A stretch of 61,546 nucleotides of DNA, filler included, from 9 parts of 9 records of this genome joined end to end with filler, not necessarily neighbours in it, one strand, 5' to 3'; positions 2,407 to 59,768 are shown, counted from the first letter of the whole stretch. Made by a program: numbers and translations. Notes: generated by a model not told the origin, from the sequence alone.

Positions 2407-2532
2407 GACAGCCGCCTTGGGTTCGCTGAAGATGGACGGCTGTGAGCAAAGGAAAATGCTGTAATGCCGTTAGTCCGGATCCGGCCGGAGCCAGTACGGT
2501 GAGTGTTGGTGATCAGCCGCCACGGGTGCGGG

Positions 2533-3546
2533 ATGCGACAGTTTGTGGTGGATCTGGAGCTCCCGCCAGACCAACGGTGGGCCGAGCTGGTCGGGGCGTT
2601 CAAGCCGCAGATTCAGCAGCTGTGCGCGATGCAGGCCCGGGCGTCCGACGAGCTGGCCCGTGCCAACGACCCGATGGGTGCCATGCTGGGGCGAGAGGCG
2701 CCAAGGCTGCTCGACCGGCTCACCCCGGAGATGGCGGCCGAGATGCGGGCGGTGGCCGGGCTGGCGGAGGTGCCGCTGCTGGCCCTGGCCATGCTGCACC
2801 TAAACTACGAGGCCTGCTGCGGCTGCACCGCGATCGGGACTTGCGACGGCCTGCTCGCCCGCTCACTGGACTGGGAGCTGCCCCCGCTGGCCGCGCTGAA
2901 CGTCCAGCTGGAGATGCACCGGGCCGGCCAGCTGCTTTACCGGCAGGTCAGCTGGGCAGGCTACCTGGGTGTGCTCACCGCAGTCCGGCCCGGTCAGTCA
3001 GCCCTGGCGCTCAATTTCCGGCTGGGGCCGGTGGCGGCCGAGCACCCGGAGGCGGTGCCGGTGGGCTTGGCGGCGCGGGCGGTTGTGGAGGCGGCGGAGG
3101 ACTACGAGCAGCTGTGTCGGGGGCTGTCAGGGGTGACCACGATGGCAGGGTTTTACGCAATGGTGTTGGGCCCGAGTGGTGAGGGCTGCGTGATAACCCG
3201 GGGGAGCTGCGGAGAGGACGGGCCGAGGGCTGAGCTGTGCGCGGGCGGGTACATCGTGCAGGCGAATATGGACTGGTGGACTGAGTCCGATAAGCAAACG
3301 GAAGACTCGCAAGAGAGCAGACCAAGGCTAAGAGTGTGCCATAGAGCCATGAAAGCGCTCGGCGGGAGGCCGGCCAGTAGGGGGGAGCTGTGGGGGCTGC
3401 TGCAGCAAAAGCCGGTGTTCGAGCGAGGGGTCACCTTGTACTGCTGCCTGATGCACGTGCCCAGCGGCGAGCTAGAAGTGGACTCGAGCCCTACTGGGAG
3501 TGGTGGCAGGCACACCAAGAACAAGCGGAAAAAGACACGCAAGTGA
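2533..3546 (+). CDS. Acid ceramidase/NAAA-like Ntn hydrolase
   Basis: FVVDLELPPDQRW N-terminal motif, YE..CGCTAI autocleavage Cys, ARSLDW, WAGYLGVLT, LNFR, GCVITR, VQANMDWW. First ATG at 2533, no signal peptide, basic C-terminal tail. Confidence 0.85.
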   Translation: MRQFVVDLELPPDQRWAELVGAFKPQIQQLCAMQARASDELARANDPMGAMLGREAPRLLDRLTPEMAAEMRAVAGLAEVPLLALAMLHLNYEACCGCTAIGTCDGLLARSLDWELPPLAALNVQLEMHRAGQLLYRQVSWAGYLGVLTAVRPGQSALALNFRLGPVAAEHPEAVPVGLAARAVVEAAEDYEQLCRGLSGVTTMAGFYAMVLGPSGEGCVITRGSCGEDGPRAELCAGGYIVQANMDWWTESDKQTEDSQESRPRLRVCHRAMKALGGRPASRGELWGLLQQKPVFERGVTLYCCLMHVPSGELEVDSSPTGSGGRHTKNKRKKTRK

Positions 3547-4098: not shown

Positions 4099-4198
4099 NN
4101 NNNNNNNNNNNNNNNNNNNNNNNNNNNNNNNNNNNNNNNNNNTTAATTAATTAANNNNNNNNNNNNNNNNNNNNNNNNNNNNNNNNNNNNNNNNNNNN
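4099..4198. other. Artificial contig-joining linker
   Basis: 44 N + TTAATTAATTAA (stops in all six frames) + 44 N. Confidence 0.98.
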
Positions 4199-7058
4199 AT
4201 TCCCGGTACAGTGGAGCGACGTTCACCAACGTGTCGCTGCACGAGTATGCGTTGTTCACTGCCGTGGAGCAAGATGTCCATGGACCTGCCTGCTGCCTGA
4301 CATGGAAAGCTCGTCTAACTTCCTCTCGGTTGAGATATGTTGTCATGTAGAGATCAGAGCAAGCTTCAGTGCCACCGACCAAGAAGCTCCTCTGCGCCCC
4401 ACTTGTTCCGGTAGAGTTCAGAAGGCAGACGTCGCTGTAGTAGTTGTAGAGAGAGAGCAGACCAGCCTTGTTGCCGCTCTGCTGCATCCATTTGTCGACC
4501 AGCTCGGCACACTTGTCAGAGACACCCCGCGGGCAGCCGTTGCCGTCTATTCCCAAGTCCTTGCTGAAGTCACACTCCCGCTCCATGGAATGCCAAAGAG
4601 ACTCCTCTACTATTGTATGTGTATAGCCTGCCTCAAACCAAGCAAAGTTGGTCTGGTTGATGTCAACTACCCCATTCCCGATCAAAACGCCACCTAAACT
4701 CGCGCAAAGGTCCGACTCCACGCTGGATATGGTGGTTGCCAGCTGTATGGTAAAATGACCTGCGTACGATTCACCCGCTACGTAAATACTTCTATTGCAT
4801 AGCCATGGATACTCTCGAAACAACTTCCGCAGCGCCTCGAGACTGTCAAGAGCCGTCTGCTTATCGTTAGCCCATGTGCTATTTGGAGGGCCTCGTGAGT
4901 AGGAATAGCCACTGCCAGCAGGCCGGTCTAAGTACAATACATGCCCGAGCCGATTTAGACTGTAGGGATTCCGTTTGAGAGGTCCTTGGCCAGTTGGAAG
5001 AAATGGCCCGTTTTCAGTGAGAGCACCGATCAGAGAGCTGCATCCATTGCCTCCCTGGAGCCAGATAATGAGCGGTACATTTCCTTCCTCCTTGTCTGTT
5101 TGGCTGGAGTGCACAAGCAAGTAAAAGAGGGATCGTTCTCCCTTTGCAACGTCTGCATATCCGGAGAACATTGGTGCGTGATCCCCTGGAGGCAGCCCTG
5201 GGAGTTGTCGCACTAGGGTTTCATCCGAGGCTGATCTAGACACCTGCGCAGGTGCCACACCCTGGTAGGCGCTGTGCAAGTTTTCAAAGCTAGAGTCGAT
5301 TGGCTGCAAACCTACGCTATGCTGCTGCAGTACAAATGGCAGATTCCCGTTGTACTCGAGACTTGAATGGAAATTCGATAGATTGAAGTTGCTGCCAAGC
5401 CTCAGCTGCTCAGCCTGGCTGTACCCAAACAACTGGACCTTCCCAATAACATACGACAGGCCCTGCGCCGGTGCTGCCAGCCTCGCCAGCACCTCGCTGG
5501 ATGCCTCAGCGGCCGACATCGGGACTTGCTTCTCAAAGTATTCGATTGCTTCTTGCACTGAAACAACCCCCGTCGCCAGCCCTACATCCGCCTCGACACG
5601 AATCGCCCGCAGCCGCATGAACTCAAACATGGTCTCGCGCAGCCGAGGCTGGTCGTCAAACAGCCCGGCCTGCAGCAGCAGCTCCTCAAAGTAGTAAGCC
5701 AGCCCTTCGTTCGCGATCGAGTCCAGCCAGTGCCGGCGTGCCTCCCTCGGGTTCCGCCAGCTGTGCCGGAATTGCGTCCAATGGCCCGGTATGCCCTCGT
5801 GGACGATCACAGGGCGTGGATCCCTTGCCAGAGAATCAAGGAAGAACGGAAGGCCCGGCCGCGGTGGCGGCAAGTAGCGCATGAAATTCAGCCCGTGCCC
5901 TTGCCGACTCTCTGCAGCTGATGTAAAATCGTCCTCCTCGCCTAAACTCGAGTAGCTGAAAGGGGCCAGCCACGGAGGGATACTGGAAACCCTATACCCG
6001 GCTGTGCCAAACCAGCTGGGGAGGTCCAGGATCCCGTTCTCACTTAGGAATCGCTTGATCTTCTCCGACATCCGAGCAGTGCCATTCACTTGGCTCGCCA
6101 GACTTGGCGCCAACGGCAGCCGTGGCGGCAGCCCTGCCGCGTCATTGACTGCTTTCTGGACCGCAAGCATGGCCTGCGACCGTGCCAGCTGCTGCCTGCC
6201 AATCTGGGTGAGCTCGGCGGTGCTCAAGTTGACAAAAGAGACGTGTTGCAGGAACCAGCGGTACTTAGCCTCTCCCACCGCCGAACTGGCGTTACTCCAC
6301 CGCCGCGCTTCCAAGTCGAGGCGCACAAATGCCGTCAGCTCAGCGAGCGCACTGGCACTCTGGTTGGCCGCTTCGGTCAGCGCGGCGCTGGTTGCCGGGC
6401 TGAGCTCCGCAGCAGCGACCACTGCCGCCACCGCGTCTCGCATATGCTGGCCGAGCGGCGAGCTGCCGTGGCTTTGGTTGTACCCGACACTCTGCAGGTA
6501 GAGCTGGCCGAGCTGGGCAGTGGGCTCCCCCCGCTCCAGGTTGGCCCGGCCATCCCGCAGCACGGCCGGGGCCGCCCGGAGCCGCGGTAGCAGACAGCCG
6601 GAGACAGCCTGCTCGTGCCAGCCGGCGCGGCAGGTCACCAGGCAGTCCCACAGCCCGCCGTAGGCCTGCTGCAGGTAAAACCCGGGGTCGCGCCATTGGG
6701 GCGCGAACACGTGCAGCTCCCAATACACCCGGGCCAGCCCAGAGCTCAGCGCCCAGTAGTCGGCCTGGTCGGCCGGAGCCCAGTGCTCGAACGGCGGCCG
6801 CGTCGTGCGGAGCTGCCGCAGCTCGAGCACCCACCGCTCGTAGGCCACTTCGGCCTGGGCAAAGGCCTGGCGCGAGACGTTGGGCGCCCAGCCGGGTGGC
6901 CGGACTACAGCGGTCCTCGGCAGGTCGTCGCTCGTGATCGGGGCCGTCACAGACCGCCAGCGCCAGAATTGGACCGCGAGGGCGTTGAGAGCGGCGGTGG
7001 GGGCCTCGGACGGAGCGCCTGCGGCGGCCGTGACCAGCAGCAGCGTGAGCAACAACAT
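4199..7058 (-). CDS. Secreted fusion of DUF885-family domain and serine carboxypeptidase S10 (3' truncated)
   Basis: Signal peptide MLLLTLLLVTAAAG. DUF885-type HEGIPGH, NEGLAYYFE and PAQGLSYVIGK. S10 motifs WLQGGNGCSS, LDRPAGSGYSY and AGESYAG. One open frame throughout. Confidence 0.85.
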
Positions 7059-7106
7059 TCCCCGAGGGGGCTCGTTTTTCCGTTAGACTCCGGCCCTGAT
7101 CGAGGC

Positions 7107-9191: not shown

Positions 9192-10064
9192 CTAATGCCC
9201 ATAATGCCCATAAGTGTGATTGTGCTGAGCTTGCGTCATGATAGCCCGCGTCTGCGATGCTTGAAACATGTTACTTGCTGCTTGCTGAGCTTGAGCGTGC
9301 TGCGGGACCTCAACAAAGCCGTCACCGCTGGGGTCGGGTCGTCTGCCGCCCAGATCGGCGATGACACCCAGGAGCTTGGTCCGCTTGATCTTGCTGCTGA
9401 CGCCCACCTCCTCGAGCATTTCGTGGTCCATCTGCAGCAGCAGCTTGCCGTCGACTTCGGCGTCACGGAACAGCTGGGGGTCAAGCCCTTGGGCCGAGGC
9501 CCAGTTGCACACGTCATCAACGGTCATCGCAGCAGGGTCTCCTGGTACAATCCCACCCCCGCCGCCTGGTGGCTCTGTGGCGCTTTTGAGGGGTGGTGCA
9601 TCCCTGCAGATGGCAGCCACGTTGGCCTCGATAAATGCCTTCATTGTATTGAGCTGCATGTTGAAGTGTTTCTGAAAGAGGCCCATCTGGGGTCCGTCCA
9701 CGGAGATACCCAGCTCGACGTTACCGTTGGGCAGCTCTTTTGTTGTGAATGTGATCCGAATCCCGGACGAGTTACACACGATTCGAGCAAGGGGTTCAAG
9801 CTGGACCACTTCAGTGACCTCCGGCCCTCCCATACCGTTGACTCCTTTAAACACCGTCCCCACACCGTACCGGTCCACAAAGGCTTTCCCTGGCGGGCAG
9901 GGCGTCACGGAGTAGGCGATCGAAATGTTGGCATACTTGGGCTGATAGAGATCAACTTTGAGGCAGACCATGAAGCAAGCGTGCAGCGTGTCTGGCCCCT
10001 GTGCAGAGACTACCACCGTCCCCCCTGCGTGGCTCTTCACCAACGTCCCCCCTCCGCAGCCCAT
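9192..10064 (-). CDS. MGC-acylated protein with SRPBCC/START-like N-domain and C-terminal SAM domain
   Basis: Probable start MGCGGG at 10064; SAM pattern MTVDDVCNW..GL...FRDAEVDGKLLL...LEEVGV..KIKRTKLL. The SRPBCC-like call is weaker. Confidence 0.7.
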   Translation of the reverse strand: MGCGGGTLVKSHAGGTVVVSAQGPDTLHACFMVCLKVDLYQPKYANISIAYSVTPCPPGKAFVDRYGVGTVFKGVNGMGGPEVTEVVQLEPLARIVCNSSGIRITFTTKELPNGNVELGISVDGPQMGLFQKHFNMQLNTMKAFIEANVAAICRDAPPLKSATEPPGGGGGIVPGDPAAMTVDDVCNWASAQGLDPQLFRDAEVDGKLLLQMDHEMLEEVGVSSKIKRTKLLGVIADLGGRRPDPSGDGFVEVPQHAQAQQAASNMFQASQTRAIMTQAQHNHTYGHYGH

Positions 10065-10155
10065 TGCCGGGATGGGAGCCGGAGGCCTTGCAGCGCAGAT
10101 GACTGAGATGAGGCCTGCCGTTACTGAGATCTTCCGTTTCAACGGCTTGACACAC

Positions 10156-12972
10156 ATGGGTTTGGCCGGAAGGCAGGCTGTGGTCTCTCTGCTGGCACTC
10201 ATCTCCGCGGCCGTGGGCGCCTCACCGTTCGGCGCCAGTGCGCGCTGGATCTCGCCCATCGGTCCGGTCCCGAACGGCACCTTCGTGGCCTACCGGGCGA
10301 GCATCGGCCTCGGGTCGGCCTGCGAGCAGGCCTCGGTGAGCGTGGCGGCCGATACAAAGTACTGGCTGTACATCAACGGCGAGCTTGCCGTGTTCGAGGG
10401 CGGCCTGAAGCGGGGCCCTACACCCACTGCAGGCTACTACGACGCGGTGGACCTGAGCAAGGCTCCCTGGAGGCCCGGTGCAAACACAGTGGCCGTGCTG
10501 GTGCTTTACCTGGGCCGGCGCACGGTGCCGCCCGGCCAAACCTGGTGGAACAACGAGCACGCAGACTCGGGCGCCCACGGCCTTCTGCTCTCTGGCAGCG
10601 TCTGTGGCGCGCCGCTAGTGACGGACGGCAGCTGGAGGGCGGTGCCGCACCCGGCATACACGAACGACTTGAGCAGCGACCTTAGTCCAAACTTTCGCTT
10701 TTCCGAGCCGGATATCATCTTTGATGCGGCCGCCGATGCCGCGATGTATGGATGGACCCGTCGAAGCTTCGACGCCACCAACTGGCCGAGCGCTGTGGTG
10801 CGCGCCTTGCCTGGGGATGCGCCGTGGGGAGCGCTGCATGAGAGGCCGATCCCGCTGTGGCGGCGGTCGGTGCACCAGCAATACGCGGCGGTGCAGTTTG
10901 AAGAGGATGCGCACGACGGCGATGGCTTCCTCCGGCTGAATGCTACCGACATCCCTGGTCAGGATCTGCACACGCGATTGCCAAAGGGCTGCTGCAACAC
11001 TGCCGACACGTGCAAAGCGGCGTGCCTGGCTGTAGCTAGCTGCAAAGCGGCCGTCTGGAGTGCGAGTGCTACTAGCTGCAATTTAAAGGGGAGCACACAT
11101 ACGACAGCCGTTTCTGGCGGCCCGCACACAGTGTTTGTTCGTGCGTATCATAGGCTGATTGGCCACCTGCCCCACGATGCCCAAGTAACACCGACGCTGC
11201 AGTTGGCCGGACCAAGCAGCAATACGACAGGGGTGCGGATCGACATTCGAACAGACTCCTACTTGACCGACGGCTCGAGCAAGGACAAAGCTGCTGGGCT
11301 GGGCATCCCCAACACTCGGGCAGCGTATATAGTTGGTGCATCCTCAGAAATGTACGAGAGCCCTGGTTGGATGGTCGGGCATCAAATCATCTACAGCGTT
11401 GACGTCTTGTCGCCACTCAACATACAGACACTGAACGTAGGATTCTTCCACTCGGGCTATGACAGCCAGCTGACCGGCGCTTTCCGCTGCGACGTCCCTG
11501 CATTGAACACGCTCTGGCGAAAGGCGCAGCGAACCTTGTATGTGAACATGAGGGACAACTGGATGGACTGCCCGGACAGAGAGCGGTCTCAATGGACCTT
11601 TGACGTGGCGATGGATGTGCACCAGGCATTCTATGCGCTGGACTCCACCTCGCACTTGCTCAGTCGAAAGTGGATCAAGGAGCTGGCTGCTTGGCAAAAG
11701 GTTGATAGCAGCTCCATCGCCTACAAGCCCGACTACGCGCCACTCTCGATCTACGCACCTGTACCGGGGCACTGGACGATGGAGCTGCCCAATCAGAGCT
11801 TGCAGTCCATCGCGTATGGGTTTGCGACCTATTGGGACCACACAGGCGACTTTGAGACCATTCAGGCGGCCTTGCCTGCAGTTGTCAGCTACCTTCTTAG
11901 CTACAAGATCACTACAGCCACTGCTGGGCTACTAGTGGTGCCGCGCACGTGCCCGGGCAAACCCCACGCGGCAGACATAACGTGCGACGCCATCTGGGAC
12001 TGGTGCGATGGGCAATCCACTAATTGTGATTACGCTCCAATAGACAACGCCTGGTATTTTTGGGCTCTCAACTCTACCGTTCGGATGGCGCACGCTGTTA
12101 ACGCTACCCGAGCCGGTGGAGAGGTGACAATCGCGCAGCTGCAGGATCTAAGCCACCGGGCGGCTGGGTTGGCGCTGGGCTTTGAGGCCGAGTTCTGGGA
12201 TGAGAGCTGCAGCTGCTATCGCTCCGAGGCCCACCGCCAGCGACAGCAACCAACGACCCACTGTCTGACGAAGCAGGACAACTGCACGCTGCCTGATGAT
12301 CGGGCGAATGCGCTTGCTATCGTCACAGGTCTCGCACCGGAGCGCAAGTGGAAGGCGATCGCACGCAGTGTTCTGGACCTATCGTCGCCCACAGCAGTGG
12401 CAAACAGCTCGACAGCTATGGAGAAGTTTGTGTTGGAGGCGCTGTTCTTGGCTGGGGAGCCCGAGGCCGCGCTGGCCAGGATGCAGGCTCGGTTCGGCCC
12501 GATGATCAGGCACAACCTAACCACGCTCTGGGAGCATTGGGAGGCCGACCCGGTCACCGGCGACCCAATCTCTGGCTACAACCATGGCTGGTCAGGCGGG
12601 GCACTTGTGCTGCTCTCGCAGTACGTGGCTGGGCTCGCACCGCTCTCAGCTGGCTGGGGCGCGTTCCGAGTTCAGCCTGAGCTAGGATCCAGCTTGAATG
12701 CGGTATCTGCCACAGTGGCAACGGCTCATGGCAACGTGCACGTTGAAGTGCATCGGAGGCATTCAGACGAACTTCGGGTATGGTTAGAGGTGCCGGACCA
12801 AAGCACAGCGCACCTGAAGCTGCCCACAAGCTTTGATGTTGGACGGGCCGAAGTGTGGCTGTCCAAATCCGGTGAGCCACTTGACAGCAAGCTAAAGGAG
12901 CCCGCTGTATTGGTGCATGGCCCTGGACTGGCGCTAGGCCCAGGGGCGTGGAGCCTTTCTGCTACTTGTTAG
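10156..12972 (+). CDS. Secreted alpha-L-rhamnosidase-like glycoside hydrolase (GH78) with inserted PAN/Apple domain
   Basis: Signal peptide from ATG 10156; ADTKYWLYING..GGLKRGP, NMRDNWMDCPDRERSQW, WDWCD, TTLWEHW, NHGWSGG, FRVQP. PAN-like TDIPGQDL...CKAAC....CKAAVW....CNLK. Confidence 0.88.
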   Translation: MGLAGRQAVVSLLALISAAVGASPFGASARWISPIGPVPNGTFVAYRASIGLGSACEQASVSVAADTKYWLYINGELAVFEGGLKRGPTPTAGYYDAVDLSKAPWRPGANTVAVLVLYLGRRTVPPGQTWWNNEHADSGAHGLLLSGSVCGAPLVTDGSWRAVPHPAYTNDLSSDLSPNFRFSEPDIIFDAAADAAMYGWTRRSFDATNWPSAVVRALPGDAPWGALHERPIPLWRRSVHQQYAAVQFEEDAHDGDGFLRLNATDIPGQDLHTRLPKGCCNTADTCKAACLAVASCKAAVWSASATSCNLKGSTHTTAVSGGPHTVFVRAYHRLIGHLPHDAQVTPTLQLAGPSSNTTGVRIDIRTDSYLTDGSSKDKAAGLGIPNTRAAYIVGASSEMYESPGWMVGHQIIYSVDVLSPLNIQTLNVGFFHSGYDSQLTGAFRCDVPALNTLWRKAQRTLYVNMRDNWMDCPDRERSQWTFDVAMDVHQAFYALDSTSHLLSRKWIKELAAWQKVDSSSIAYKPDYAPLSIYAPVPGHWTMELPNQSLQSIAYGFATYWDHTGDFETIQAALPAVVSYLLSYKITTATAGLLVVPRTCPGKPHAADITCDAIWDWCDGQSTNCDYAPIDNAWYFWALNSTVRMAHAVNATRAGGEVTIAQLQDLSHRAAGLALGFEAEFWDESCSCYRSEAHRQRQQPTTHCLTKQDNCTLPDDRANALAIVTGLAPERKWKAIARSVLDLSSPTAVANSSTAMEKFVLEALFLAGEPEAALARMQARFGPMIRHNLTTLWEHWEADPVTGDPISGYNHGWSGGALVLLSQYVAGLAPLSAGWGAFRVQPELGSSLNAVSATVATAHGNVHVEVHRRHSDELRVWLEVPDQSTAHLKLPTSFDVGRAEVWLSKSGEPLDSKLKEPAVLVHGPGLALGPGAWSLSATC

Positions 12973-46498: not shown

Positions 46499-46525
46499 TG
46501 AGATTGGCGCAACCCGAGGAACAAC

Positions 46526-48466
46526 ATGTATCGGGGCGCAGGGCTACTCGTGCTCCTGGCGGTGCTCGGGGCGGGCGTGCTCATCGAGGAAGATTCGCCG
46601 TTGCCGGAGACCGAGCTACGGCCCACCCAGCTGTTGGCCGCGGAATCGCATGATTTGGCGCGCAAGATCGATGTTGACCAGATGCTGCAGCGGGAGCGCA
46701 GCCAGAGCGAGAAGCGGTACCACAGGCTCGAGGCCGAGAAGCACAAGATGAAGGACGAGAAGAGGCACGCCCGGAAGGCGTATCATCACTGCCGCAAGGA
46801 CATTCGGCACGAGTACCACAAGTGCCGGAGAGCGCTCAAGCACCGGAGCGGTCTGAACAGCCACTACTGTGCCCCGTTCAAGAAGGCGCTCGGCTCGGAG
46901 CTGCTCCAGGTGGTCAACCCGGCCGAGATAGCCGCCCGGGCCGCCAGCCGGATCAAGGCAATCGAGCAATCCGACGGTGTGACGCCCGAGGAGCAGGCTG
47001 GCGGTATCGCTCATACTGATGACGAGGATGGTGTCGCCGAGACTGAACTGATGCAGAGGGGCCGCCGTCGCCGCCGTCGACGCCGCCGCCGTCGACGCCG
47101 CCGCCGTCGCAGGCGCCGCCGTCGCAGGCGCCGCCGCCGTCGTCGTTGGCGGCGAGCTCACAGAAGAGAGCGTCGCGAGAAGAGGCGGGCGCGACACAGA
47201 GAGCGGCGTGATAAGCGGCGAGAGCACCGGCGTGAACGGCACGAGAAGAGGCACGAGAGGCATGAAAAGAAGAGGGAGAGACGACACAAGAGGCGAGCGG
47301 CGCGCAAGGAAAGGCACAAGAAGAAGAGGGAGCAGAGGAAGGAGCGGCGGCACAAGAGGCGAGCGCACCGGAAGGAACGGCGGCACAAGCGGAAGCACTG
47401 GCGGAAGGAGCGGCGGCACCTGCGGCACGACCTTCGCAGGGCCAAGCGGGATGCGATGAGGCAATGCAAAAAGGTCTGGAAGAAGGCCAAGGCCAAGTAC
47501 AAGAACTACAAGCACCAGCTTCGGGAGGCTCGATTCGCGGTCAAGATTATGCCCAAGGTCGTGAAGATGCTTATGCCAATCCTGCACAGCCAGCTCTCCA
47601 AGATGGCGATCAACCAACCGAACCGCGCCGGGATACCGGGGGCTACAAAAGTGCTGCAATCGATGCCACAAGTCGAGAAGGAGACAATTGCTCTGTTGGA
47701 GGAGATGGTCAGGCTCCAGATCGCCAAGGTGGTGAACTCTGCACTGGACGATCTGTTCAAAGGACTGAAGGACCTGCTATGGGACGCAGTCGGTGCCCTG
47801 GTGGACTCGCTCGAGGATACGCTGGTCACATCACTCGGGGAGATCCCGTTCGTTGGAGGCATTTTGGCTGGAATGGCATATGATGTCGTTTCAATGGTCT
47901 ATGGGGTGGTCAAGGACGGAGTGAATGCCGGACTGGACACGATCCAGGCCAAGCTGAGCTCTTTCATCGTCAAAGCACTATGCAAGGTCGCATTTGGTCC
48001 AATCGAGATGTTAGCCGGGCCCGCCGTTCAGGAAGCCGCTCAAGGTGCAGACGGCGTGCTCAGCGATGTGGCCAACAAGACAGCAACTGGCTGGTCAAAT
48101 ATGCACCAGAAATCGGCGCCGGAGGCAGACAAGGCCAAGAAAGATGTCGTCAGCGAGGGCTATGCTGAGCAGACAGACTACGACGCAGATGATGACGATG
48201 ACGAGCAGACCGAAGAGCAAGAGGACCAAGCAGATGACACAGAAGAAGACGAAGAGCTGCTGCAAGGGACACAGGACGACTCTGGTGAAGAATCTGGTGA
48301 AGAAGCTGATGAAGGCGAATCTGATGAAGACAGCTTTTACGACGACACAGTTCTGGAAGCTGATGAAGACGAATCTGATGAGACGAGCCTTCTGGAAGAT
48401 GATCGTGAAGAGCAGGACTCGGAGCAATTTCTGGGCCGTGATTACATTGTTGCTGAGGCTCTGTGA
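46526..48466 (+). CDS. Secreted polyampholyte protein, paralog B (intronless)
   Basis: Signal MYRGAGLLVLLAVLGAG; shares EKRYH.L.AEKH, CAPF, CKK.WKKAKAK.K.YKH.LR.AR.AVKIMPK and SLGEIP..GG.LA with paralog A; poly-Arg and R/H/K/E tract; long acidic tail. Confidence 0.88.
   Translation: MYRGAGLLVLLAVLGAGVLIEEDSPLPETELRPTQLLAAESHDLARKIDVDQMLQRERSQSEKRYHRLEAEKHKMKDEKRHARKAYHHCRKDIRHEYHKCRRALKHRSGLNSHYCAPFKKALGSELLQVVNPAEIAARAASRIKAIEQSDGVTPEEQAGGIAHTDDEDGVAETELMQRGRRRRRRRRRRRRRRRRRRRRRRRRRRRRWRRAHRRERREKRRARHRERRDKRREHRRERHEKRHERHEKKRERRHKRRAARKERHKKKREQRKERRHKRRAHRKERRHKRKHWRKERRHLRHDLRRAKRDAMRQCKKVWKKAKAKYKNYKHQLREARFAVKIMPKVVKMLMPILHSQLSKMAINQPNRAGIPGATKVLQSMPQVEKETIALLEEMVRLQIAKVVNSALDDLFKGLKDLLWDAVGALVDSLEDTLVTSLGEIPFVGGILAGMAYDVVSMVYGVVKDGVNAGLDTIQAKLSSFIVKALCKVAFGPIEMLAGPAVQEAAQGADGVLSDVANKTATGWSNMHQKSAPEADKAKKDVVSEGYAEQTDYDADDDDDEQTEEQEDQADDTEEDEELLQGTQDDSGEESGEEADEGESDEDSFYDDTVLEADEDESDETSLLEDDREEQDSEQFLGRDYIVAEAL
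47063..47146 (+). repeat. Coding poly-arginine tract (28 Arg)
   Basis: 28 consecutive Arg codons mixing CGC, CGT, CGA and AGG. Confidence 0.9.
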
Positions 48467-48508: not shown

Positions 48509-48608
48509 NNNNNNNNNNNNNNNNNNNNNNNNNNNNNNNNNNNNNNNNNNNNTTAATTAATTAANNNNNNNNNNNNNNNNNNNNNNNNNNNNNNNNNNNN
48601 NNNNNNNN
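48509..48608. other. Artificial contig-joining linker
   Basis: N-run + TTAATTAATTAA + N-run. Confidence 0.98.
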
Positions 48609-48838
48609 CGCAGCGCATCGGCCTCGCGCACCGCGGCCGCGGCCTGGGCTTGCGCCTGGCCAAGCTCGGCAGTGAGCCGCGCCACTTCTGGCACAGTCTG
48701 GTTGGTCTGCTGCGGCGCTGCCTCGGCCCCCTCCCCCAGCCTAGCGGCATCCGGGCCCGGGCATAGCCCAGGCTCGCTTGCCAGGGAGAGCATGGCTTCA
48801 CGGAACGCCTGGTGCGACTGTCGGGCCGAATCAAGCAT
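48609..48838 (-). CDS. Probable 5' fragment of a coiled-coil protein divergent from the Schlafen gene
   Basis: MLDSARQSHQAFREAML...EVARLTAELGQAQAQAAAAVREAD is open into the linker. Confidence 0.4.
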
Positions 48839-48925
48839 CACGCCCTGGCGTATATACTGGCGGCCCTGCGCCAGGGGACGGGTGATCATTGTTCAAACGG
48901 CTTTCACAACACCAGTCGGCTCCCC

Positions 48926-51900
48926 ATGGCTGGAGAGCGGAATCCGAGCCAGCCCTGGGCCCAGATCCGGCGGATGGGCAGCTTCTGCAGCTGCGGGGTG
49001 CCCGAGTGCACGATCTGCTTCCCGGGCCCTCCGGCGTCTGGCTCCTCCAAACGGAGCAAGGGCCGGCCGCGCGGGCAGACACTCGACTCGCTCCGGACTG
49101 TCTACTCGGCCTGTGGCCAGTCCAATCGCGTGATTGACATGCAGATCAAGATCAAACGGAGGCAGGCCCGAATACGCCGCTCGCCAGGGGCCAAACCGGA
49201 CCTGGAGCAGTTCTCTGTAGAGCTAGCCATGAGTGCCACCGTCTCGGTCCGCCCGAGCGCTAAGCTGGCCGAAATACGGCGGGAGATCTCCTCACAGCTG
49301 GATCTGCCCGACGCGTGCGCCTGCCTGCGGCCTGGCAGCACGGCTGGGCCAGGTACTGCTTCCTGCACCCAGACACCGAGCTGCCGATCTCGCGCGCGCA
49401 GGAGGAAATGGACAGCGCCGCACGGGCCCGTGACTTCTGGCCAGACCGGGGGCTGCCCAACATGATGGTGCTCGTGGCGGCTGGTGGCGGCGGCAGTGCG
49501 GGGCAGATCTTGATCGAGGGCTACATCGAGGGCGAGGTCATGCAGCTGCGCGAGTCGCGCTCAGTAGAGTTCAAATCGCTGGCTGAGCCGGTCAGGCGTG
49601 GGACTAAGACCGCGCGCGAGACAGTGCTGGCGATCATCGACCGAGGTTACATTAACGCATTCCTAAACTCGGATGGTGGTGTGCTCTACTTCGGAGTGGA
49701 GGATTCAGGCGAGGTGCGCAGTCGGATGAGTAACGGCTCGCTGGTGGCGTTTACAGTCAAGGAGCTTGACCAGATTGCGCTGATGATAGACTCAAAGATC
49801 AAGCAGTACGACCCTCCAGTGGACGACCACCTGGTTCGGATCAACTTCACCCCGATTGGTGAGCCCAGCTCACGGCTGGCCTGATCCGCTGGACCCAGTC
49901 GGGACCGGGTGTGAGCTGGTGGCCGAGCCTGGGGCGGCCGGGGAGGGCCCGGTGGAGCCTGCGCGGCGGCCATATGTGATTGAGGTGTGTGCGTCCGCGT
50001 GGATTGCCTGAGCGTGACCAGGTGCATGTGGAGCCTGGGGCACACCCGGTGTACTTTATGGATAAAATGAGCAAGGCGGCCTACCACCGGCTCAACTCGA
50101 GCAAGGCGCCTCTCCCGGCGGCAGGCGGCTGAGTGGAAGAGGCCAGGCCGAGATGCCAGAGAAGCTTGTTCAGTCTAGGATGGCGCTAGCTCAGAAGGAG
50201 TTTCCAGACACCCGGTACCAGACCGGGGACATGGGCTGGCGTCAAGTGCTCCCGGAACCGGAGATGTTTATCCCGGTCATAAAGGGCACAAAGAGCGCTG
50301 ATGCGTTTGTGGGGCGGGGCTGGCTCTGGGATAAGGTGGGCTCGATCGGTTCGGCTGGCTGATTGTGCGGGCAGGTTGAGCGGTTTGTGTCTGACGCGGA
50401 GTGCTCCTGCGTGGTGATCACTGGCAGCGCCGCCACGGGCAAGACCTCGATAGTCAAGCAGGCAGGCGGCAGAACGGCGGCTGCTGATCGATGTTCAGGT
50501 GGTCTGCCAGCTCGAGAGATGGTTGCTGCAGCCCAATGCGGCTGAGCGAGTGCAGGAGCGCAAGCGGAGGGCCCGGGCTCACCGGGGCGGGCGCGCCAGC
50601 CCGCCTGAGGACTCGAGGCCAGTGAATACAGGGCTGTCCAGTCGGAGCAATGAGCGATACAAAGTTCTTTGCTACCACTTCTCGCAGCCGGAAGGCGAGG
50701 AGCCCGAGCCAGGCTGGTGGGTGCGAAACTTGGCTTCACAATCAGCAGACATGGTGAGCTTCCCTTTGGGCGAGCTGTGGCTGACAGGCACTTGGCAGTT
50801 GAGGTCGTACCGAGTGGCTCTGGCGCAGAATAGGCGAGCAACGCAGTGTCTGCAGGTGGAAAAGTGCAATGTGAACCCGATTCGGTCGCTTGAAGTTGGG
50901 TTGCTCGATCTGCTTGCACAGCTCGAGGCGCCCAACCAGACCTACTTGATGGTGAGCTGGCCCTGCCACCGGCTCCCAGTATGGTCACAGGTGATTGACC
51001 ACACCAGCCACATCAACGTGAGTGAGCTGCTGATGGGCGCGATCAGTCGGTTTCCCAAATGGCTTAAACTTGTCATCACCACCACGCCCAACGAGCTGGC
51101 GATGGCTACAGCTGCCGTGCAGGGCAACAGGGGCATGTGGCGGTCGATTGAGCTAGATAGCTCAGAGCCGCATATTGTAGACGACATGGTGCCGGCTTCC
51201 AGCTGTGCCAGCTCTAACTGTGTCTCAATGCAGATGAAATACGTGCAACAGAAGATCGACAGGCAGAACTTGTCGTACGGATTCGAGGCGCTCGAACAGC
51301 GCGCACAAAGTAGCAGTCCACGGTCGTCCAGTCCGCTAATCCGAGCGCCGAGCGACGACTTGAGGATCTTGTGCGAGCGGAGCCGTGGGAACTACGCTTA
51401 CGTGGAGTCTGCAATCAAGCTTATTCTGGCCAGTGGGAGCTCGGATGTCGGACAGGGGCTGAGTTTGCAGTCGTACATCAAGTCTGCATGTGGGGGTGAA
51501 ATGACTGGTGAATGACTGGCTGGTGGATAGGCGGATGATCTGGCGTTGCAGGAGCCACAATGAACTTACTTCAAGTGCTCCTGGCCGCAAGGCGGCCACT
51601 GACGGCTGCGGATCTGGCTCAAACGCTTGGGCTCAGCAGTGCTGGGAGGCTCGACCAGGATACAGAGACAAAGGTGCACTTGTTGACCAATCAGCTCGGT
51701 CCGCTAGTGACCTGGGAGGAATCCGGGTGCAAATGGGCGAATGCTTGGTGCTAGATTCATTGCTTTGGGTCTGATCTGTCCACAGGATGCCACAATGGCT
51801 CCGGGACTTCTTCAAGGAGACGAGCGGTGCCGCCGCCCTCGGGCACTGCGCGTGACGTACTTTCAGATGGGGCCTCAGAGATATCTGAGGCAATGGGGCA

Positions 51901-53134
51901 CATGAGACTAGCCACTGCTTTCCTGAGGAGCGCCTCATCTCTGGAGAGTGCGATCCGTGGCTGGCTCAAGGAAGATTACGCGGTGAACAGTGGCACCTAG
52001 GGCGATTCTTAGAGTCGTGCACGTAGGTGGATTCCGGGGTTGAGCAAAGGTCTAGCGATTGGGACCACCACGACACGGTGTATGAGATTGTGTGGCACCT
52101 GGCGGCTTGCAGGTTGCTGCTCAGCCTAGCAGTAGGGTCAGTAGCCGGCTGCAGGAAAGGCACCATAGAGGCTCGGGCTGAAGCTGTCAAGGCATCGGTA
52201 GGGGACCGGCTGGATGCACCAAACCGGCACGGCTCCACAGCGCTGCACAGGTGGGCTTCTGGATTGTCCGTTTGAGCGAGGGGACGGCAGGGCATGTGCC
52301 AAGGGACACGACGAGATGGCATGCATTTTAATAGCAGCCAAAGCCGACCCAATGGCCGCCACAAGGGATGGCAGCACTCCTTGCCATGGTGCATAGATAA
52401 AGTGCCGCAGCGTGCTCAGCCACAGTCGGGCAGTTGCGGCGCACAGAGGCCACCACCAGGTGCTCCGCCGCCTTCTGGTGACAGCCGGCCAAGGAGCGCC
52501 GGCCGAAGCAGGTGCTGAGCTAGGCGGGAAGTGGCGCGGTTGACTGTGGACAGGCTTGCTGGATGACCCGCTTCACACACCGCTCATGAGGGCAGCGGAG
52601 AAGGGGCAGTTAGAGTGTGTGACAGCGTTGCTCGAGCACCCACATACACTGGCTCAGATGAATGCCGCACTAGCCTCTGCGGTCCGACACGGCAGGGACC
52701 AGCTGATCGAGTTGCTTTGTAACGCCAAGGCCGACCCGTGTGCAGTTCACACCCGGGGTGCGCTGGCTCGAGGCAATCATCCTGACAGACTGTGTGCAGG
52801 CCAGACTTGTTTGCATATTGCGGCCAGCCACGGCTACACTCGCTGTGTTGGGGCACTACTAGACGGCAAGGCCGACGCATCCCTGCAGATGCTTGATGAT
52901 TTGGGCTGCACCCCTCTCGCCTGTGCCACTAAGTCCAATTGCGGTAGCAAGTTTACGCGCCTTCTCGAGTGCAATAACGGGAAAATGCGAGGCAGAATGC
53001 GGAGTAACGTGTCGTGGGACTGGTCTCGAGTGGTCCATCTGCTTGGCAGCGAAACAAAAGACCCGGGTGCACCGGCCGAGTACGACGTCCCGCTTATACC
53101 GCTAGTCCGGTCTCGGAGCCGCTCGTTTGCCTGA
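48926..53134 (+). CDS. Ubiquitin-like + Schlafen/AlbA_2 + NACHT/STAND-like P-loop NTPase + ankyrin-repeat protein, about 18 introns
   Basis: AlbA_2: RESRSVEFKS..YINAFLNSDGGVLYFGVED..YVIEVHV..AYHRLNSS. NACHT-like: FVGRGWLW, ITGSAATGKTS, LCYHF, FPKWLKLVITT, SRGNYAY, LLAARRPLT, GHMRLA. ANK: GSTALHRAC..GH, GSTPCH.AAHRGH, TPLMRAAEKGQ, GQTCLHIAASHG. A continuous frame was reconstructed with introns of about 37-45 nt. Start at 48926 or 48974. Confidence 0.82.
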
Positions 53135-57355: not shown

Positions 57356-57455
57356 NNNNNNNNNNNNNNNNNNNNNNNNNNNNNNNNNNNNNNNNNNNNT
57401 TAATTAATTAANNNNNNNNNNNNNNNNNNNNNNNNNNNNNNNNNNNNNNNNNNNN
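57356..57455. other. Artificial contig-joining linker
   Basis: N-run + TTAATTAATTAA + N-run. Confidence 0.98.
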
Positions 57456-59768
57456 GGAGCACGAGTACGCCGGGACGGTCAAGGCAGGGGGCCGGTTGCC
57501 CTCTGGTCCCCCGTCCAAAAGCGATCTGCGCGAGGCTCTTGCTAGTTGGGAGGCAAGCCACGACCAGCAAACCCCGGCCGCGCAGGCATCGGGTGAGGCC
57601 CTCGACCCCGGGCCCGGGCATGACTGGCTTGTTGCAGCCGCGGGCGCCACGGCGCGGGCTCTTGAGCAGAAGCTGGAGGAGCAGGCCCGGCTTCAAGCGG
57701 ACATCGCCATCAACGCGGCTTGCCAGGCTGCGGCCGCCGAGGCGCTCTCAGACCGGCGGAAGGCCGTCTACTCGTTCTTGTCGGAGGACTACCGGGAGGG
57801 CGGGGTGGCGCCGTACGACCGGAACGATTACTACATCCGGCATCAGGGCGAGAAGCTAGCGGTCACAAGCAACTCTGGCCCCGTGGACCGTCAGGACTCA
57901 AGCTTCAAGATCACCAAGCCGCTGTGCAAGCCCGGGGACGAAGGCTGCCCTGTTCAAAACGCCGGGAGCGCTTGCTGCGTGTCTCTGCAATCAGTCAATT
58001 GGCAGGGGTACTTCCTGATGCAGCACGAGGAGGGCAAGCTGAGCATGTCTGAAAGTGACGGGAGCGCCAATTTCAACAAGGCGGCCACCATGTGTCTGCA
58101 GAACGGGGTGGCCAACCCGACCGCCGGGATCTCGATGCAGCCGCTCGGCGAGAACACGTTCGTGCTCCATGAAGGCTATCACATGGTCGTTGGCGCGATT
58201 GAGGGAGCCGAAGCCTTGGGCTCCGCAGAGGCCGCCACCTTCCGTCTCCGACCGGCGCTCTTCATGGGTGCCTGCCAAGGCCCGGCCAACATGGGAGAGT
58301 GCACCTGCTACGAGGGGTACCTCGGAGACTCGTGTGCTACACCGTGCCCAGGGCTCAAGTTTGTTGCTGGGACCGCCGAAGTGTGTAGCAACCATGGCGA
58401 CTGCGTGCTTGGCGAGAGCGGGACCGCCGAGTGCGCCTGCCAAGCGGGCTTCCTCGGGCGCGAGTGCAACCTCAAGTGTCCGATCTCTTCAACCAACAAC
58501 CTCAAGTGCCACGGGCGCGGCGAGTGCGCGGTCAATGAGGCTTTTCAGCCGACATGCAAATGTGAGAGAGGCTACCTGGGCCTGACCTGTGAGACTGCCT
58601 GTCCGGGAGCCGGCGGCGATCTGGGAGCTTGCTCGAGCCACGGCGACTGCACTATGAACGAGGACAACTCCGCGGCCAAATGCACCTGCCACGACGGCTT
58701 CCAGGGGGATGACTGCTTCCTGGCGTGCCCGAGGGACGGGGCCGACAACGTGTGCGGCGGCAACGGCGAGTGCAAGCATCTCAAAGCCGAGGGCAAGACT
58801 ATGTGTGAATGCAAGCCCGGTTTTGTCGGTCAGGCCTGCGGCCTGGAGTGCCCCCAAAACAAGAAGACCGGCAACCCGTGCAGCGACCGCGGCACGTGCG
58901 TGGAAGAAGACTACAAGTCAGTGTGCAAGTGCAATGGCGGCTTCATGGGCCCTGCCTGTGATGCCGAGTGCCCTGGGCTGACTCAAGTGGAAGGGAACTC
59001 AGTAGGCTGCAGCGGGCATGGCAACTGCGAGTACAAACCAGATCTCGGCTCGGCCCAGTGCAATTGCTTCGAGAAGGATGGCTTCATGGGTGAAGGCTGT
59101 GAGCAGCAGTGCCCGCGCGGTGACAACGATGCCGGGGTCAGTGACGTGTGCTCCGGCCATGGCAAATGCGAGATGGAAGTCAACGAGATGAGCAACCCTG
59201 CCGGCGAGATGGAGACTAAGTGCAAGTGCGATTCACTGTTCACCGGCGACAACTGCGGCGTGACCTGTCCGACCACTGTCAAGGACGCTTCGTGCAGTGG
59301 GCATGGCAAGTGCACTGTGCCTGAAGATGGCAACTCATCCGGTGCGTGCGAATGCGAGAAGGGCTTCATGGGTCCTCACTGCGGGTTTGAATGCCCCAAA
59401 GGCAAAGAAGGCGAGGTGTGCAGCGGCAAAGGCGAGTGCGAAGGTGCCCGCCCCGGCTGCCGGCTGAGCTGACTGCTGCTGTGGCAGCGGACATGACAAG
59501 CGACAGGGCTGTCTGCAAATGCGACGGTGCATTCAGCGGCGATGCCTGTGCAGACTACGCGTGTGGCACAGCACTCTCTGAGCTGGTTGGCGAAAAGTGT
59601 CAGTGCCCTGCCGACAGCGAGAAGTGTTGTAGCCGAGAGGATGCGCTCAAAGCGGCCGCGTTTGACAAGTTTGTGGCTGCGCACAAGGAGATGCTTCGGT
59701 CGGGCAAGAAGGAGCTCGACATGACCAAGCTCGACTTGAGCGAGGTGCTCACCTTGGACGAAGTGTAA
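57456..59768 (+). CDS. AbfB/CBM42-like beta-trefoil + about 10 tenascin/laminin-type EGF repeats (5' truncated, 1 visible intron)
   Basis: YYIRHQG...DSSF, VSLQSVNWQGYFL, AATF (AbfB-like triplet); repeated CS.HG.C....C.C..GF.G..C; a GT-AG intron near 59443 joins to ORF 59391..59768. Confidence 0.8.

Follow-up and report, generated by a model that had tools for sequence, protein, structure and literature searches.

Organization of the locus

The DNA analysed here, called the window below, is a stretch of 61,546 nt in which 9 parts of 9 records were joined with filler, and the gene under study lies on its plus strand at positions 48926-53134. This gene is predicted to encode a receptor-like protein in which a Schlafen-type AlbA_2 nuclease domain is followed by an NTPase module of the STAND class (signal transduction ATPases having numerous domains) and by ankyrin repeats. 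All three plus-strand frames of 48926-53134 were broken by stop codons, the open pieces being 20-353 codons long, and the GC content across the whole window was 50-70%. An initial annotation had proposed that a single frame emerges once about 18 tiny GT/GC-AG introns are removed, and this was borne out by the curated model, which has 18 introns and 1,154 open codons and is backed by a transcript homologue, P0001. The features of the gene are given below, where P0003 is a short environmental open reading frame (ORF), P0005 is a 672-residue protein, Pantoea refers to a bacterial plasmid protein with an AlbA_2 domain and Atlas refers to language-model neighbours.

48926-53134 (+): whole coding region, curated model; 19 exons, 18 introns, 3,465 nt, 1,154 codons; stop codon at 53132-53134
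48926-49521 (+): N-terminal extension, residues 1-186; coding potential only; interrupted by intron 1
49315-49352 (+): intron 1, GT-AG, 38 nt; ab initio only, outside homologue coverage; alternative GC-AG intron at 49313-49338, 26 nt
49522-50173 (+): predicted AlbA_2/Schlafen-type nuclease domain, residues 187-364, exons 2-5; Pfam, PDB, Atlas and Pantoea alignment
49552-49575 (+): E-x4-E-F-K motif (E197, E202), aligned to E205 and E210 of rat SLFN13
49693-49704 (+): GVED motif (D247), aligned to D248 of rat SLFN13
49859-49898 (+): intron 2, GT-AG, 40 nt; ab initio and candidate scoring; the frames on either side, once joined, match the bacterial AlbA_2 domain
49985-50021 (+): intron 3, GT-AG, 37 nt; ab initio, candidate scoring and bacterial AlbA_2 alignment
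50106-50146 (+): intron 4, GC-AG, 41 nt; top of 6 candidates against P0001; without in-frame GT donor
50294-51161 (+): predicted STAND nucleotide-binding domain, residues 405-640; P0005 alignment, 58% identity to P0001, Atlas
50336-50374 (+): intron 5, GT-AG, 39 nt; junction scoring against P0001
50423-50446 (+): Walker A motif, G-x4-G-K-T, conserved in P0001; weak AAA_16 and nSTAND matches on the exon
50462-50498 (+): intron 6, GC-AG, 37 nt; top of 2 candidates against P0001
50754-50798 (+): intron 7, GT-AG, 45 nt; in frame, stop-free; 15-residue gap in P0001
50952-50990 (+): intron 8, GT-AG, 39 nt; in frame, stop-free; 13-residue gap in P0001
51162-51506 (+): helical/lid region, residues 641-740; weak AAA_lid_TANC1 match on the P0001 equivalent; aligns to P0005
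51189-51233 (+): intron 9, GT-AG, 45 nt; in frame, stop-free; gap in P0001 and 18-residue insertion in P0003
51507-51813 (+): winged-helix domain, residues 741-815; most conserved part, 71% against P0001; weak HTH_TANC1 match
51508-51551 (+): intron 10, GT-AG, 44 nt; junction scoring against P0001
51748-51785 (+): intron 11, GT-AG, 38 nt; junction scoring against P0001
51814-52074 (+): helical spacer, residues 816-872; least conserved part, 36% against P0001
51835-51880 (+): intron 12, GC-AG, 46 nt; highest score against P0001; GT-AG at 51827-51878 preferred ab initio; junction uncertain
51983-52026 (+): intron 13, GT-AG, 44 nt; alternative GC donor at 51980, with close scores (91 vs. 96)
52075-52930 (+): ankyrin-repeat region, residues 873-1087; about 6-7 repeats, continuing across introns 14-18
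52113-52154 (+): intron 14, GT-AG, 42 nt; in frame; junction scoring against P0001
52251-52290 (+): intron 15, GT-AG, 40 nt; junction scoring against P0001
52389-52433 (+): intron 16, GT-AG, 45 nt; ab initio and junction scoring against P0001
52512-52553 (+): intron 17, GT-AG, 42 nt; junction scoring against P0001
52758-52799 (+): intron 18, GT-AG, 42 nt; in frame; 14-residue gap in P0001

The introns ranged from 37 to 46 nt in length and from 47 to 79% in GC content, 15 of them being GT-AG and three GC-AG, with borders mostly reading G/GTG...CAG/G. The GC-AG introns were those at 50106-50146, 50462-50498 and 51835-51880, of which the first two, already named as examples in the initial annotation, were the top-scoring junctions against P0001 and are firmly backed by it. 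Introns of the BOC1 type were ruled out for this gene on account of the GC content, since the small BOC1 introns of Mamiellales are defined as AT-rich, with <43% GC (PMC3879977). Three junctions are uncertain, each having an alternative (introns 1, 12 and 13). No run of N was found within 48926-53134.

Ab initio splice threading gave open paths but mis-spliced the P-loop exon and several ankyrin exons, and it was therefore replaced by a homologue-guided choice of junctions, in which all the frame-preserving GT/GC-AG candidates between anchor blocks were considered and their junction peptides were scored against P0001. As a chance control, the minimum number of GT/GC-AG introns of 35-47 nt required for an open path was counted. 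An open path took no fewer than 12 introns on the real strand and 14 on the reverse complement; 18 out of 20 shuffled sequences needed 19-27, the other two having no path, and other stretches of the window needed 5-23, with one strand of one stretch having none. Taken alone, an open path through tiny introns is weak evidence, as it fails to separate real from control sequence, and the support for the gene model is thus the homologue match. Furthermore, codon-usage log-odds trained on the downstream exons favoured the frame of the model by +0.3 to +0.46 log2 per codon from approximately codon 41, also across intron 1. No frame preference was seen for codons 1-40, so that the start codon is uncertain.

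A transcript homologue places the domains in one reading frame

The read-through translation of 50499-51512 was used as a HMMER query against 1.84 billion protein representatives, in which a total of three proteins were found at E<=0.001, the best one being P0001 (756 aa, phmmer E 2.5e-66). P0001 is a Trinity/TransDecoder product from the EukProt dataset of Telonema subtile, that is, the protein of an intron-free transcript, although its source could be a co-cultured organism instead of Telonema subtile. When aligned to the window by tblastn (E 7.5e-104), it spanned 50058-52930 over all three frames, a stretch that holds 14 of the 18 introns, and the gaps in P0001 were located at introns, those of 13-15 residues coinciding exactly with in-frame GT...AG segments. 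Over the part that they share, which starts in the last portion of AlbA_2 and takes in the NTPase and the ankyrin repeats, the spliced model and P0001 were identical at 409 of 722 ungapped columns (57%), with the highest identity in the winged helix (71%), followed by the nucleotide-binding domain (58%), the ankyrin region (55%) and the spacer (36%). In addition, P0003 carried an insertion of 18 residues exactly at intron 9, as would be expected if a relative had an intron at this position and it was read through.

The junction between the nuclease and NTPase parts was covered by exon 4 (50022-50105), which encodes the last strands of the AlbA_2 domain and whose final 16 residues matched the first 16 of P0001. 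From these strands, P0001 runs unbroken into the NTPase and the ankyrin repeats. Hence, a related transcript has the NTPase and the ankyrin repeats in one reading frame with the last part of AlbA_2, and any gene boundary would need to cut the AlbA_2 domain itself. P0001 thereby rules out a boundary between the nuclease and NTPase parts, and 48926-53134 reads as a single gene with predicted splicing.

P0001 was labelled as a complete ORF, yet its first methionine lies inside the AlbA_2 domain, and its C-terminal tail of 15-20 residues is unrelated to the window protein. The P0001 transcript assembly is probably chimeric or intron-retaining, which would hide the AlbA_2 domain from architecture surveys. 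No further relatives came from a word-indexed protein search with the AlbA_2 fragment ("longer" lengths), which gave no match, from the same search with residues 60-520 of P0001, which returned P0001 alone, or from a scan of metagenome contigs with P0001, in which none of 23 pattern matches was confirmed.

The AlbA_2 domain and its catalytic residues

Pfam SLFN_AlbA_2 (PF04326) matched the unspliced segment 49264-49884 with 31.2 bits (cut-off 25.3) and an E-value of 3.6e-7, covering positions 1-49 out of 118 of the hidden Markov model (HMM), while exons 3 and 4 searched singly gave no Pfam match. A tblastn search of plasmid records with the AlbA_2 fragment returned one match, a Pantoea protein (E 2e-5), whose own Pfam AlbA_2 match is nearly full length (residues 194-321, HMM positions 1-117 out of 118, E 4.5e-18). 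Residues 187-364 of the spliced model aligned to residues 184-327 of this protein with 28% identity over 180 columns (pairwise E 3e-12), running through exons 2-4 into exon 5. The alignment thus provides indirect evidence that the AlbA_2 domain of the window protein is complete, including its C-terminal half. The Pantoea protein itself (L001, NZ_CP045243.1 7825-14118, coding sequence 2452-3468) is annotated only as "ATP-binding protein"; its gene lies on a conjugative plasmid near a gene with a P-loop NTPase fold and a RES-family NAD+ phosphorylase gene, surroundings that look like a defence-type neighbourhood.

All 10 matches of the fragment 49441-49858 in the PDB (phmmer, E<=10) were Schlafens, the best one being 5yd0_A (E 4.6e-4), followed by SLFN11, SLFN12 and SLFN5. 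In the alignment with 5yd0_A, E-x4-E-F-K and G-V-E-D of the window protein stood opposite E-x4-E-F-K and G-V-D-D of 5yd0, and the numbering of the 5yd0_A chain was deduced to be offset by 13 from that of the paper, which makes these residues E205, E210 and D248 of rat SLFN13. Mutation of any one of the three reduces the nuclease activity of rat SLFN13, E205A and E210A being fully inactive (PMC5862951). Likewise, all 30 Atlas neighbours of the AlbA_2 fragment were SLFN_AlbA_2 clusters (top score 0.92). The metal-binding acidic triad of Schlafens is therefore retained in the window protein (E197/E202/D247), and nuclease activity is predicted. In this way, a Pfam match above the cut-off and a whole-domain alignment at 49522-50173 upheld the claim of a full AlbA_2 domain at about 49540-50170, and the alignment to the SLFN13 catalytic residues upheld that of a conserved E-x4-E-F-K ... 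GVED pattern. A single AlbA_2 lobe was found in the window protein. On the N-terminal extension (residues 1-186), no Pfam family was matched at E<=0.01, and no ubiquitin-type Pfam match was found at E<=1 on either half of residues ~95-175, the putative Ubl-like segment of the initial annotation, the halves split by intron 1 having been searched separately.

The STAND NTPase module and the ankyrin region

The nucleotide-binding domain starts with an F-V-G-R-x-W-L lead-in and the Walker A motif, which coincides with the P-loop first noticed at 50423-50446, and has an insert of 46 residues after the P-loop helix. The Walker B motif (hhhhD, residues 582-586) is split by intron 8, its hydrophobic strand ending in Asp. 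Direct profile matches were weak throughout the module. On the 60-residue exon with Walker A, Pfam gave AAA_16 (E 6.2e-4) and nSTAND3 (E 0.038), and the 353-codon piece at 50454-51515 gave no match. HTH_TANC1 was found on 51539-51754 (E 0.0064) and on P0001 (E 0.006), and AAA_lid_TANC1 on P0001 (E 0.015), all of them under the Pfam cut-off; the lid and winged-helix matches appeared in the expected order in the window pieces and P0001. Neither NPHP3_N nor NACHT gave a profile match, the limit being E<=1 for the window fragments and E<=0.1 for P0001. A PDB sequence search with the NTPase fragment gave a chance match only (E 1.1), and one with P0005 gave TIR structures only.

The class of the NTPase was approached through its relatives. 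P0005 carries TIR_2, NPHP3_N (E 2.4e-20), AAA_lid_TANC1 and HTH_TANC1, and it was matched by P0001 at an E-value of 4.6e-5 in 5.8 billion sequences (pairwise 27% identity over 333 columns, E 3e-14). The spliced model aligned to P0005 by blastp with 26% identity over 431 columns (E 7e-19), from the lead-in and Walker A to the winged helix. Moreover, all 30 Atlas neighbours of residues 60-520 of P0001 were NPHP3_N/NACHT clusters, mostly from fungal NOD-like receptors (NLRs) including HET-E-like ones, with scores of 0.95-0.96. According to this indirect evidence, the NTPase is best named an NPHP3_N/NACHT-type STAND with a TANC1-like lid and winged helix. The NACHT-type helical and winged-helix motifs of the initial annotation are hence supported indirectly, through the homology to P0005 and the weak TANC1-type matches, but not by any direct NPHP3_N/NACHT profile match.

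The ankyrin region gave the clearest family matches, with Ank_2 (E 1.2e-17) and Ank (E 3.6e-15) on 52544-53134 and Ank_2 on P0001 (E 4.9e-26). The repeats were counted by eye in the spliced model as about 6-7, in agreement with the earlier count of at least four.

Surroundings of the gene

Two runs of N around the 12-mer TTAATTAATTAA, which has stops in all six frames, form an artificial contig-joining linker at 48509-48608. This gap lies just 318 nt upstream of the proposed start, and the gene may have upstream exons beyond it. A minus-strand ORF at 48557-48892 enters the assembly gap and has its ATG at ~48892, ~35 nt from the plus-strand ATG at 48926; its coding potential is +0.26, and it would seem to be a neighbouring gene transcribed divergently, the two genes being separated by hardly any DNA. 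Beyond the gap, a 654-codon frame at 46502-48466 (+) encodes an extremely charged, low-complexity protein, in which >30 arginines follow one another unbroken, long repeats are rich in Arg/Lys/His and the tail is rich in Asp/Glu.

The other long uninterrupted ORFs of eukaryote type in the window encoded WD40, rhamnosidase, serine carboxypeptidase, MFS and EGF proteins. Among these, a 979-codon frame at 4143-7082 (-) combined DUF885 (E 1.4e-39) with serine carboxypeptidase S10 (E 1.4e-71), which may be an unusual fusion. Two more long frames without introns encoded a bacterial-type alpha-L-rhamnosidase, at 9949-12972 (+), and a protein of EGF/teneurin-type repeats that also carries AbfB (arabinofuranosidase B), at 57412-59472 (+). 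The long neighbouring ORFs thus appear to be intron-free, unlike the gene with 18 introns.

Comparison with known systems

The order found in the window protein (AlbA_2, P-loop STAND, winged helix, ankyrin) agrees with the tripartite effector-NTPase-ankyrin layout first described for it. The accompanying claim that this architecture is uncharacterised was too strong, as AlbA_2 combined with a STAND NTPase is known from SAMD9/9L, Avs9 and Schlafen-NACHT proteins, together with repeats in the first two. The animal SAMD9/9L has the layout SAM-AlbA_2-SIR2-P-loop NTPase-TPR-OB, mirrored by the bacterial Avs9, and its AlbA_2 domain cleaves tRNA-Phe (PMC12680541). The window protein resembles it in having an AlbA_2 effector N-terminal to a STAND-like P-loop NTPase and helical repeats in one polypeptide. 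The output of SAMD9/9L is tRNA cleavage and a translation block, for which the acidic AlbA_2 site is needed (PMC12680541; PMC5445408). In contrast to SAMD9/9L, no SAM, SIR2, TPR or OB domain was found by Pfam in the window pieces or P0001, the NTPase is NPHP3_N/NACHT-like, the repeats are ankyrin repeats and the AlbA_2 domain matches Schlafens, with no SAMD9 chain among the 10 PDB matches at E<=10. The window gene is therefore analogous to the SAMD9/9L family and not a member of it. A published survey reports no SAMD9/9L-like matches in plants, fungi, algae or protozoa (PMC12680541).

Among bacterial proteins, bNACHT34 carries a Schlafen RNase, according to Kibby et al. (10.1101/2022.07.19.500537), and "SLFN-NACHT" is treated as a recognised group (10.64898/2026.05.29.728809; PMC13462974). 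In these proteins and in Avs9, as in the window protein, a NACHT/STAND NTPase is preceded in one chain by an AlbA_2/Schlafen domain with a single lobe, and they are predicted or shown to act in defence by killing the cell (10.1101/2022.07.19.500537; 10.64898/2026.05.29.728809; PMC13462974; PMC12680541). However, the window gene is eukaryotic and has 18 spliceosomal introns, its product has ~186 residues before the AlbA_2 domain and an ankyrin sensor, and its nuclease and NTPase parts were not matched by the PADLOC v2 defence models.

Fungal NLRs of the HET-E-like kind (NPHP3_N/NACHT) have the same effector-NTPase-repeat layout and were the nearest language-model neighbours of the NTPase, but the window NTPase falls under the Pfam cut-offs of NPHP3_N and NACHT. 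Ankyrin is one of the usual repeat types of fungal NLRs, and no Schlafen/AlbA_2 domain on a fungal NLR was found described in the literature. With regard to SLFN11/13, which gave the best matches among solved structures, E-x4-E-F-K and G-V-x-D match the catalytic residues of rat SLFN13. In mammalian Schlafens the N-domain consists of two lobes, and the long members add a superfamily 1 (SF1) helicase (10.64898/2026.05.29.728809), whereas the window protein has one AlbA_2 lobe and no helicase family match, followed by the STAND NTPase and ankyrin repeats. TANC1/TANC2 share the STAND P-loop with a TANC1-like lid and winged helix, followed by ankyrin repeats (PMC5533708). Opposite to them, TPR was undetected in the window protein; TANC proteins are scaffolds without a nuclease domain, and the TANC1 sub-domain matches were under the cut-off. 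An AlbA_2/Schlafen domain on a eukaryotic NACHT/NPHP3_N-ankyrin protein was not found in the main texts of the literature, the supplementary tables of which may list such architectures. Overall, the window gene looks like a rare further variant, with another NTPase clade, an ankyrin sensor and a microbial eukaryote as its host, from a group in which the survey reported no SAMD9-like proteins.

Proposed function and alternative explanations

By analogy with the systems above, the gene is read as that of an NLR-like immune sensor of 1,154 residues from a GC-rich eukaryote, with an RNase effector switched by the STAND module and the ankyrin repeats, a reading to which a probability of roughly 55% is given. 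The ankyrin repeats would keep the protein inactive and bind the trigger, probably a viral or other non-self protein. Upon nucleotide binding, the NTPase module would oligomerise and bring the single-lobed AlbA_2 domains together as an active nuclease, which would cut tRNA or rRNA, so that translation would stop in the affected cell. This mechanism is proposed because of the analogy with SAMD9/9L, Avs9, Schlafen-NACHT, Schlafen-Argonaute and Cash, and a translation shut-off triggered by a ligand is plausible on that basis. In SAMD9/9L and Avs9, cell killing or translation block requires the AlbA_2 acidic site (PMC12680541), Schlafen nucleases are governed by their oligomeric state in Schlafen-Argonaute (10.64898/2026.05.29.728809) and Cash (PMC13462974), and bacterial Schlafens cleave tRNA in phage defence (PMC13056530).

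Several observations weigh against an immune sensor working in this way. The family is very rare, with only the three matches mentioned among 1.84 billion representatives, and therefore no diversification, copy number or genomic context supports an immune role. As for the NTPase, neither the window protein nor P0001 reached the cut-off of any Pfam NTPase family. After the fourth strand, both of them have T-T-T-P where P0005 has T-T-R-R, the Arg-Arg position of P0005 being the STAND sensor-1 site. P0001 and P0005 also carry an acidic pair after Walker B, which has given way to other residues in the window copy. With the sensor-1 Arg absent and the acidic pair lost, ATP hydrolysis may be weak or lost in the window copy; the absent arginine suggests that the switch is driven by binding and that hydrolysis is slow or does not occur. 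PADLOC v2 matched only the ankyrin-containing PDC-M72A and Ankyrin models on P0001 and left the AlbA_2 and NTPase fragments unmatched, and the NCBIfam models matched the ankyrin part alone. The AlphaFold2 model of P0001 was too poor for fold comparison, with a mean predicted local distance difference test (pLDDT) score of 47 and a predicted template modelling (pTM) score of 0.33. Moreover, this kind of NTPase also occurs with ankyrin repeats in the animal TANC proteins, which serve as scaffolds instead of immune sensors (PMC5533708).

Accordingly, the same protein might act outside immunity, as a TANC-like scaffold, an allorecognition (HET-like) switch or a stress switch, in which the AlbA_2 domain binds RNA or DNA or is a regulated RNase. 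The TANC1-like lid and winged helix fit such a role, as does the existence of TANC1/2 as scaffolds that combine a STAND P-loop with ankyrin repeats (PMC5533708); HET-E-type fungal NLRs, whose task is allorecognition, are among the nearest neighbours by language model, and the window shows neither a sign of gene-family expansion nor a defence neighbourhood. This explanation is nevertheless rather unlikely, given that the Schlafen RNase site keeps its full set of three acidic catalytic residues and that the characterised AlbA_2-STAND combinations in the literature consulted are all defence or cell-killing proteins (PMC12680541; 10.1101/2022.07.19.500537). Less probable again is a paralogue that is decaying or dead as a switch, in which the frame is still open but the NTPase does not cycle and the protein is inactive or constitutively off. 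The loss of the acidic pair after Walker B, which P0001 keeps, would be in line with this, together with the sensor-1 Arg missing from both proteins and the identity of just 57% to P0001, the sole full relative. However, 1,154 codons remain open across 18 introns that need precise splicing, and the coding potential does not vary from one part of the gene to another. The nuclease triad is also intact, as are Walker A and the Asp of Walker B, and the winged helix is 71% conserved against P0001.

The reading that seems hardest to sustain is an artefact, with at least two genes, one for the AlbA_2 domain and another for the NTPase and ankyrin repeats, or else an assembly join, threaded together by permissive "introns". 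Tiny introns are indeed easily threaded through GC-rich DNA, the reverse complement needing just 14, and P0001, called a complete ORF, lacks all but the last part of AlbA_2; an assembly gap also lies 318 nt upstream of the start codon. Opposite to this, a gene boundary would split an AlbA_2 domain whose exons 2-5 are covered by a single alignment to a bacterial AlbA_2 protein, the 16 residues that P0001 shares with the end of exon 4 are continued into the NTPase, and the gene holds no N run. As for the immune-sensor reading, a narrower form of it makes the protein a third, independently assembled AlbA_2-STAND immune receptor, the microbial-eukaryote counterpart of SAMD9/9L and of Avs9/Schlafen-NACHT. 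Its parts would be a single-lobed RNase of Schlafen-like type, an NPHP3_N/NACHT module resembling that of fungal NLRs, and ankyrin repeats as the sensor. This proposal is tentative, being rather more probably wrong than right.

Significance

The combination of an AlbA_2 nuclease with a STAND switch is becoming a module of "ancestral immunity", following the work since 2025 on SAMD9/9L, Avs9, bacterial Schlafens, Cash and Schlafen-Argonaute. An intact Schlafen site on an NLR-like chassis in a microbial eukaryote would extend this module to a new branch and would add to the cases in which domains were assembled convergently. Gene callers that are ORF-based or made in the style of those for prokaryotes do not see the gene, as its introns are 37-46 nt long and three of them are GC-AG, and surveys of domain architecture would miss the family because of these tiny introns and because its sole database relative is N-terminally truncated, without the AlbA_2 domain. 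If true, the interpretation as a third receptor would close the reported gap in "algae and protozoa", and it would mean that three or more lineages have each arrived anew at tRNA cleavage gated by oligomerisation as a suicide switch against viruses. Furthermore, the protein would offer a simple, single-lobed eukaryotic system in which to ask how oligomerisation turns on a Schlafen RNase.

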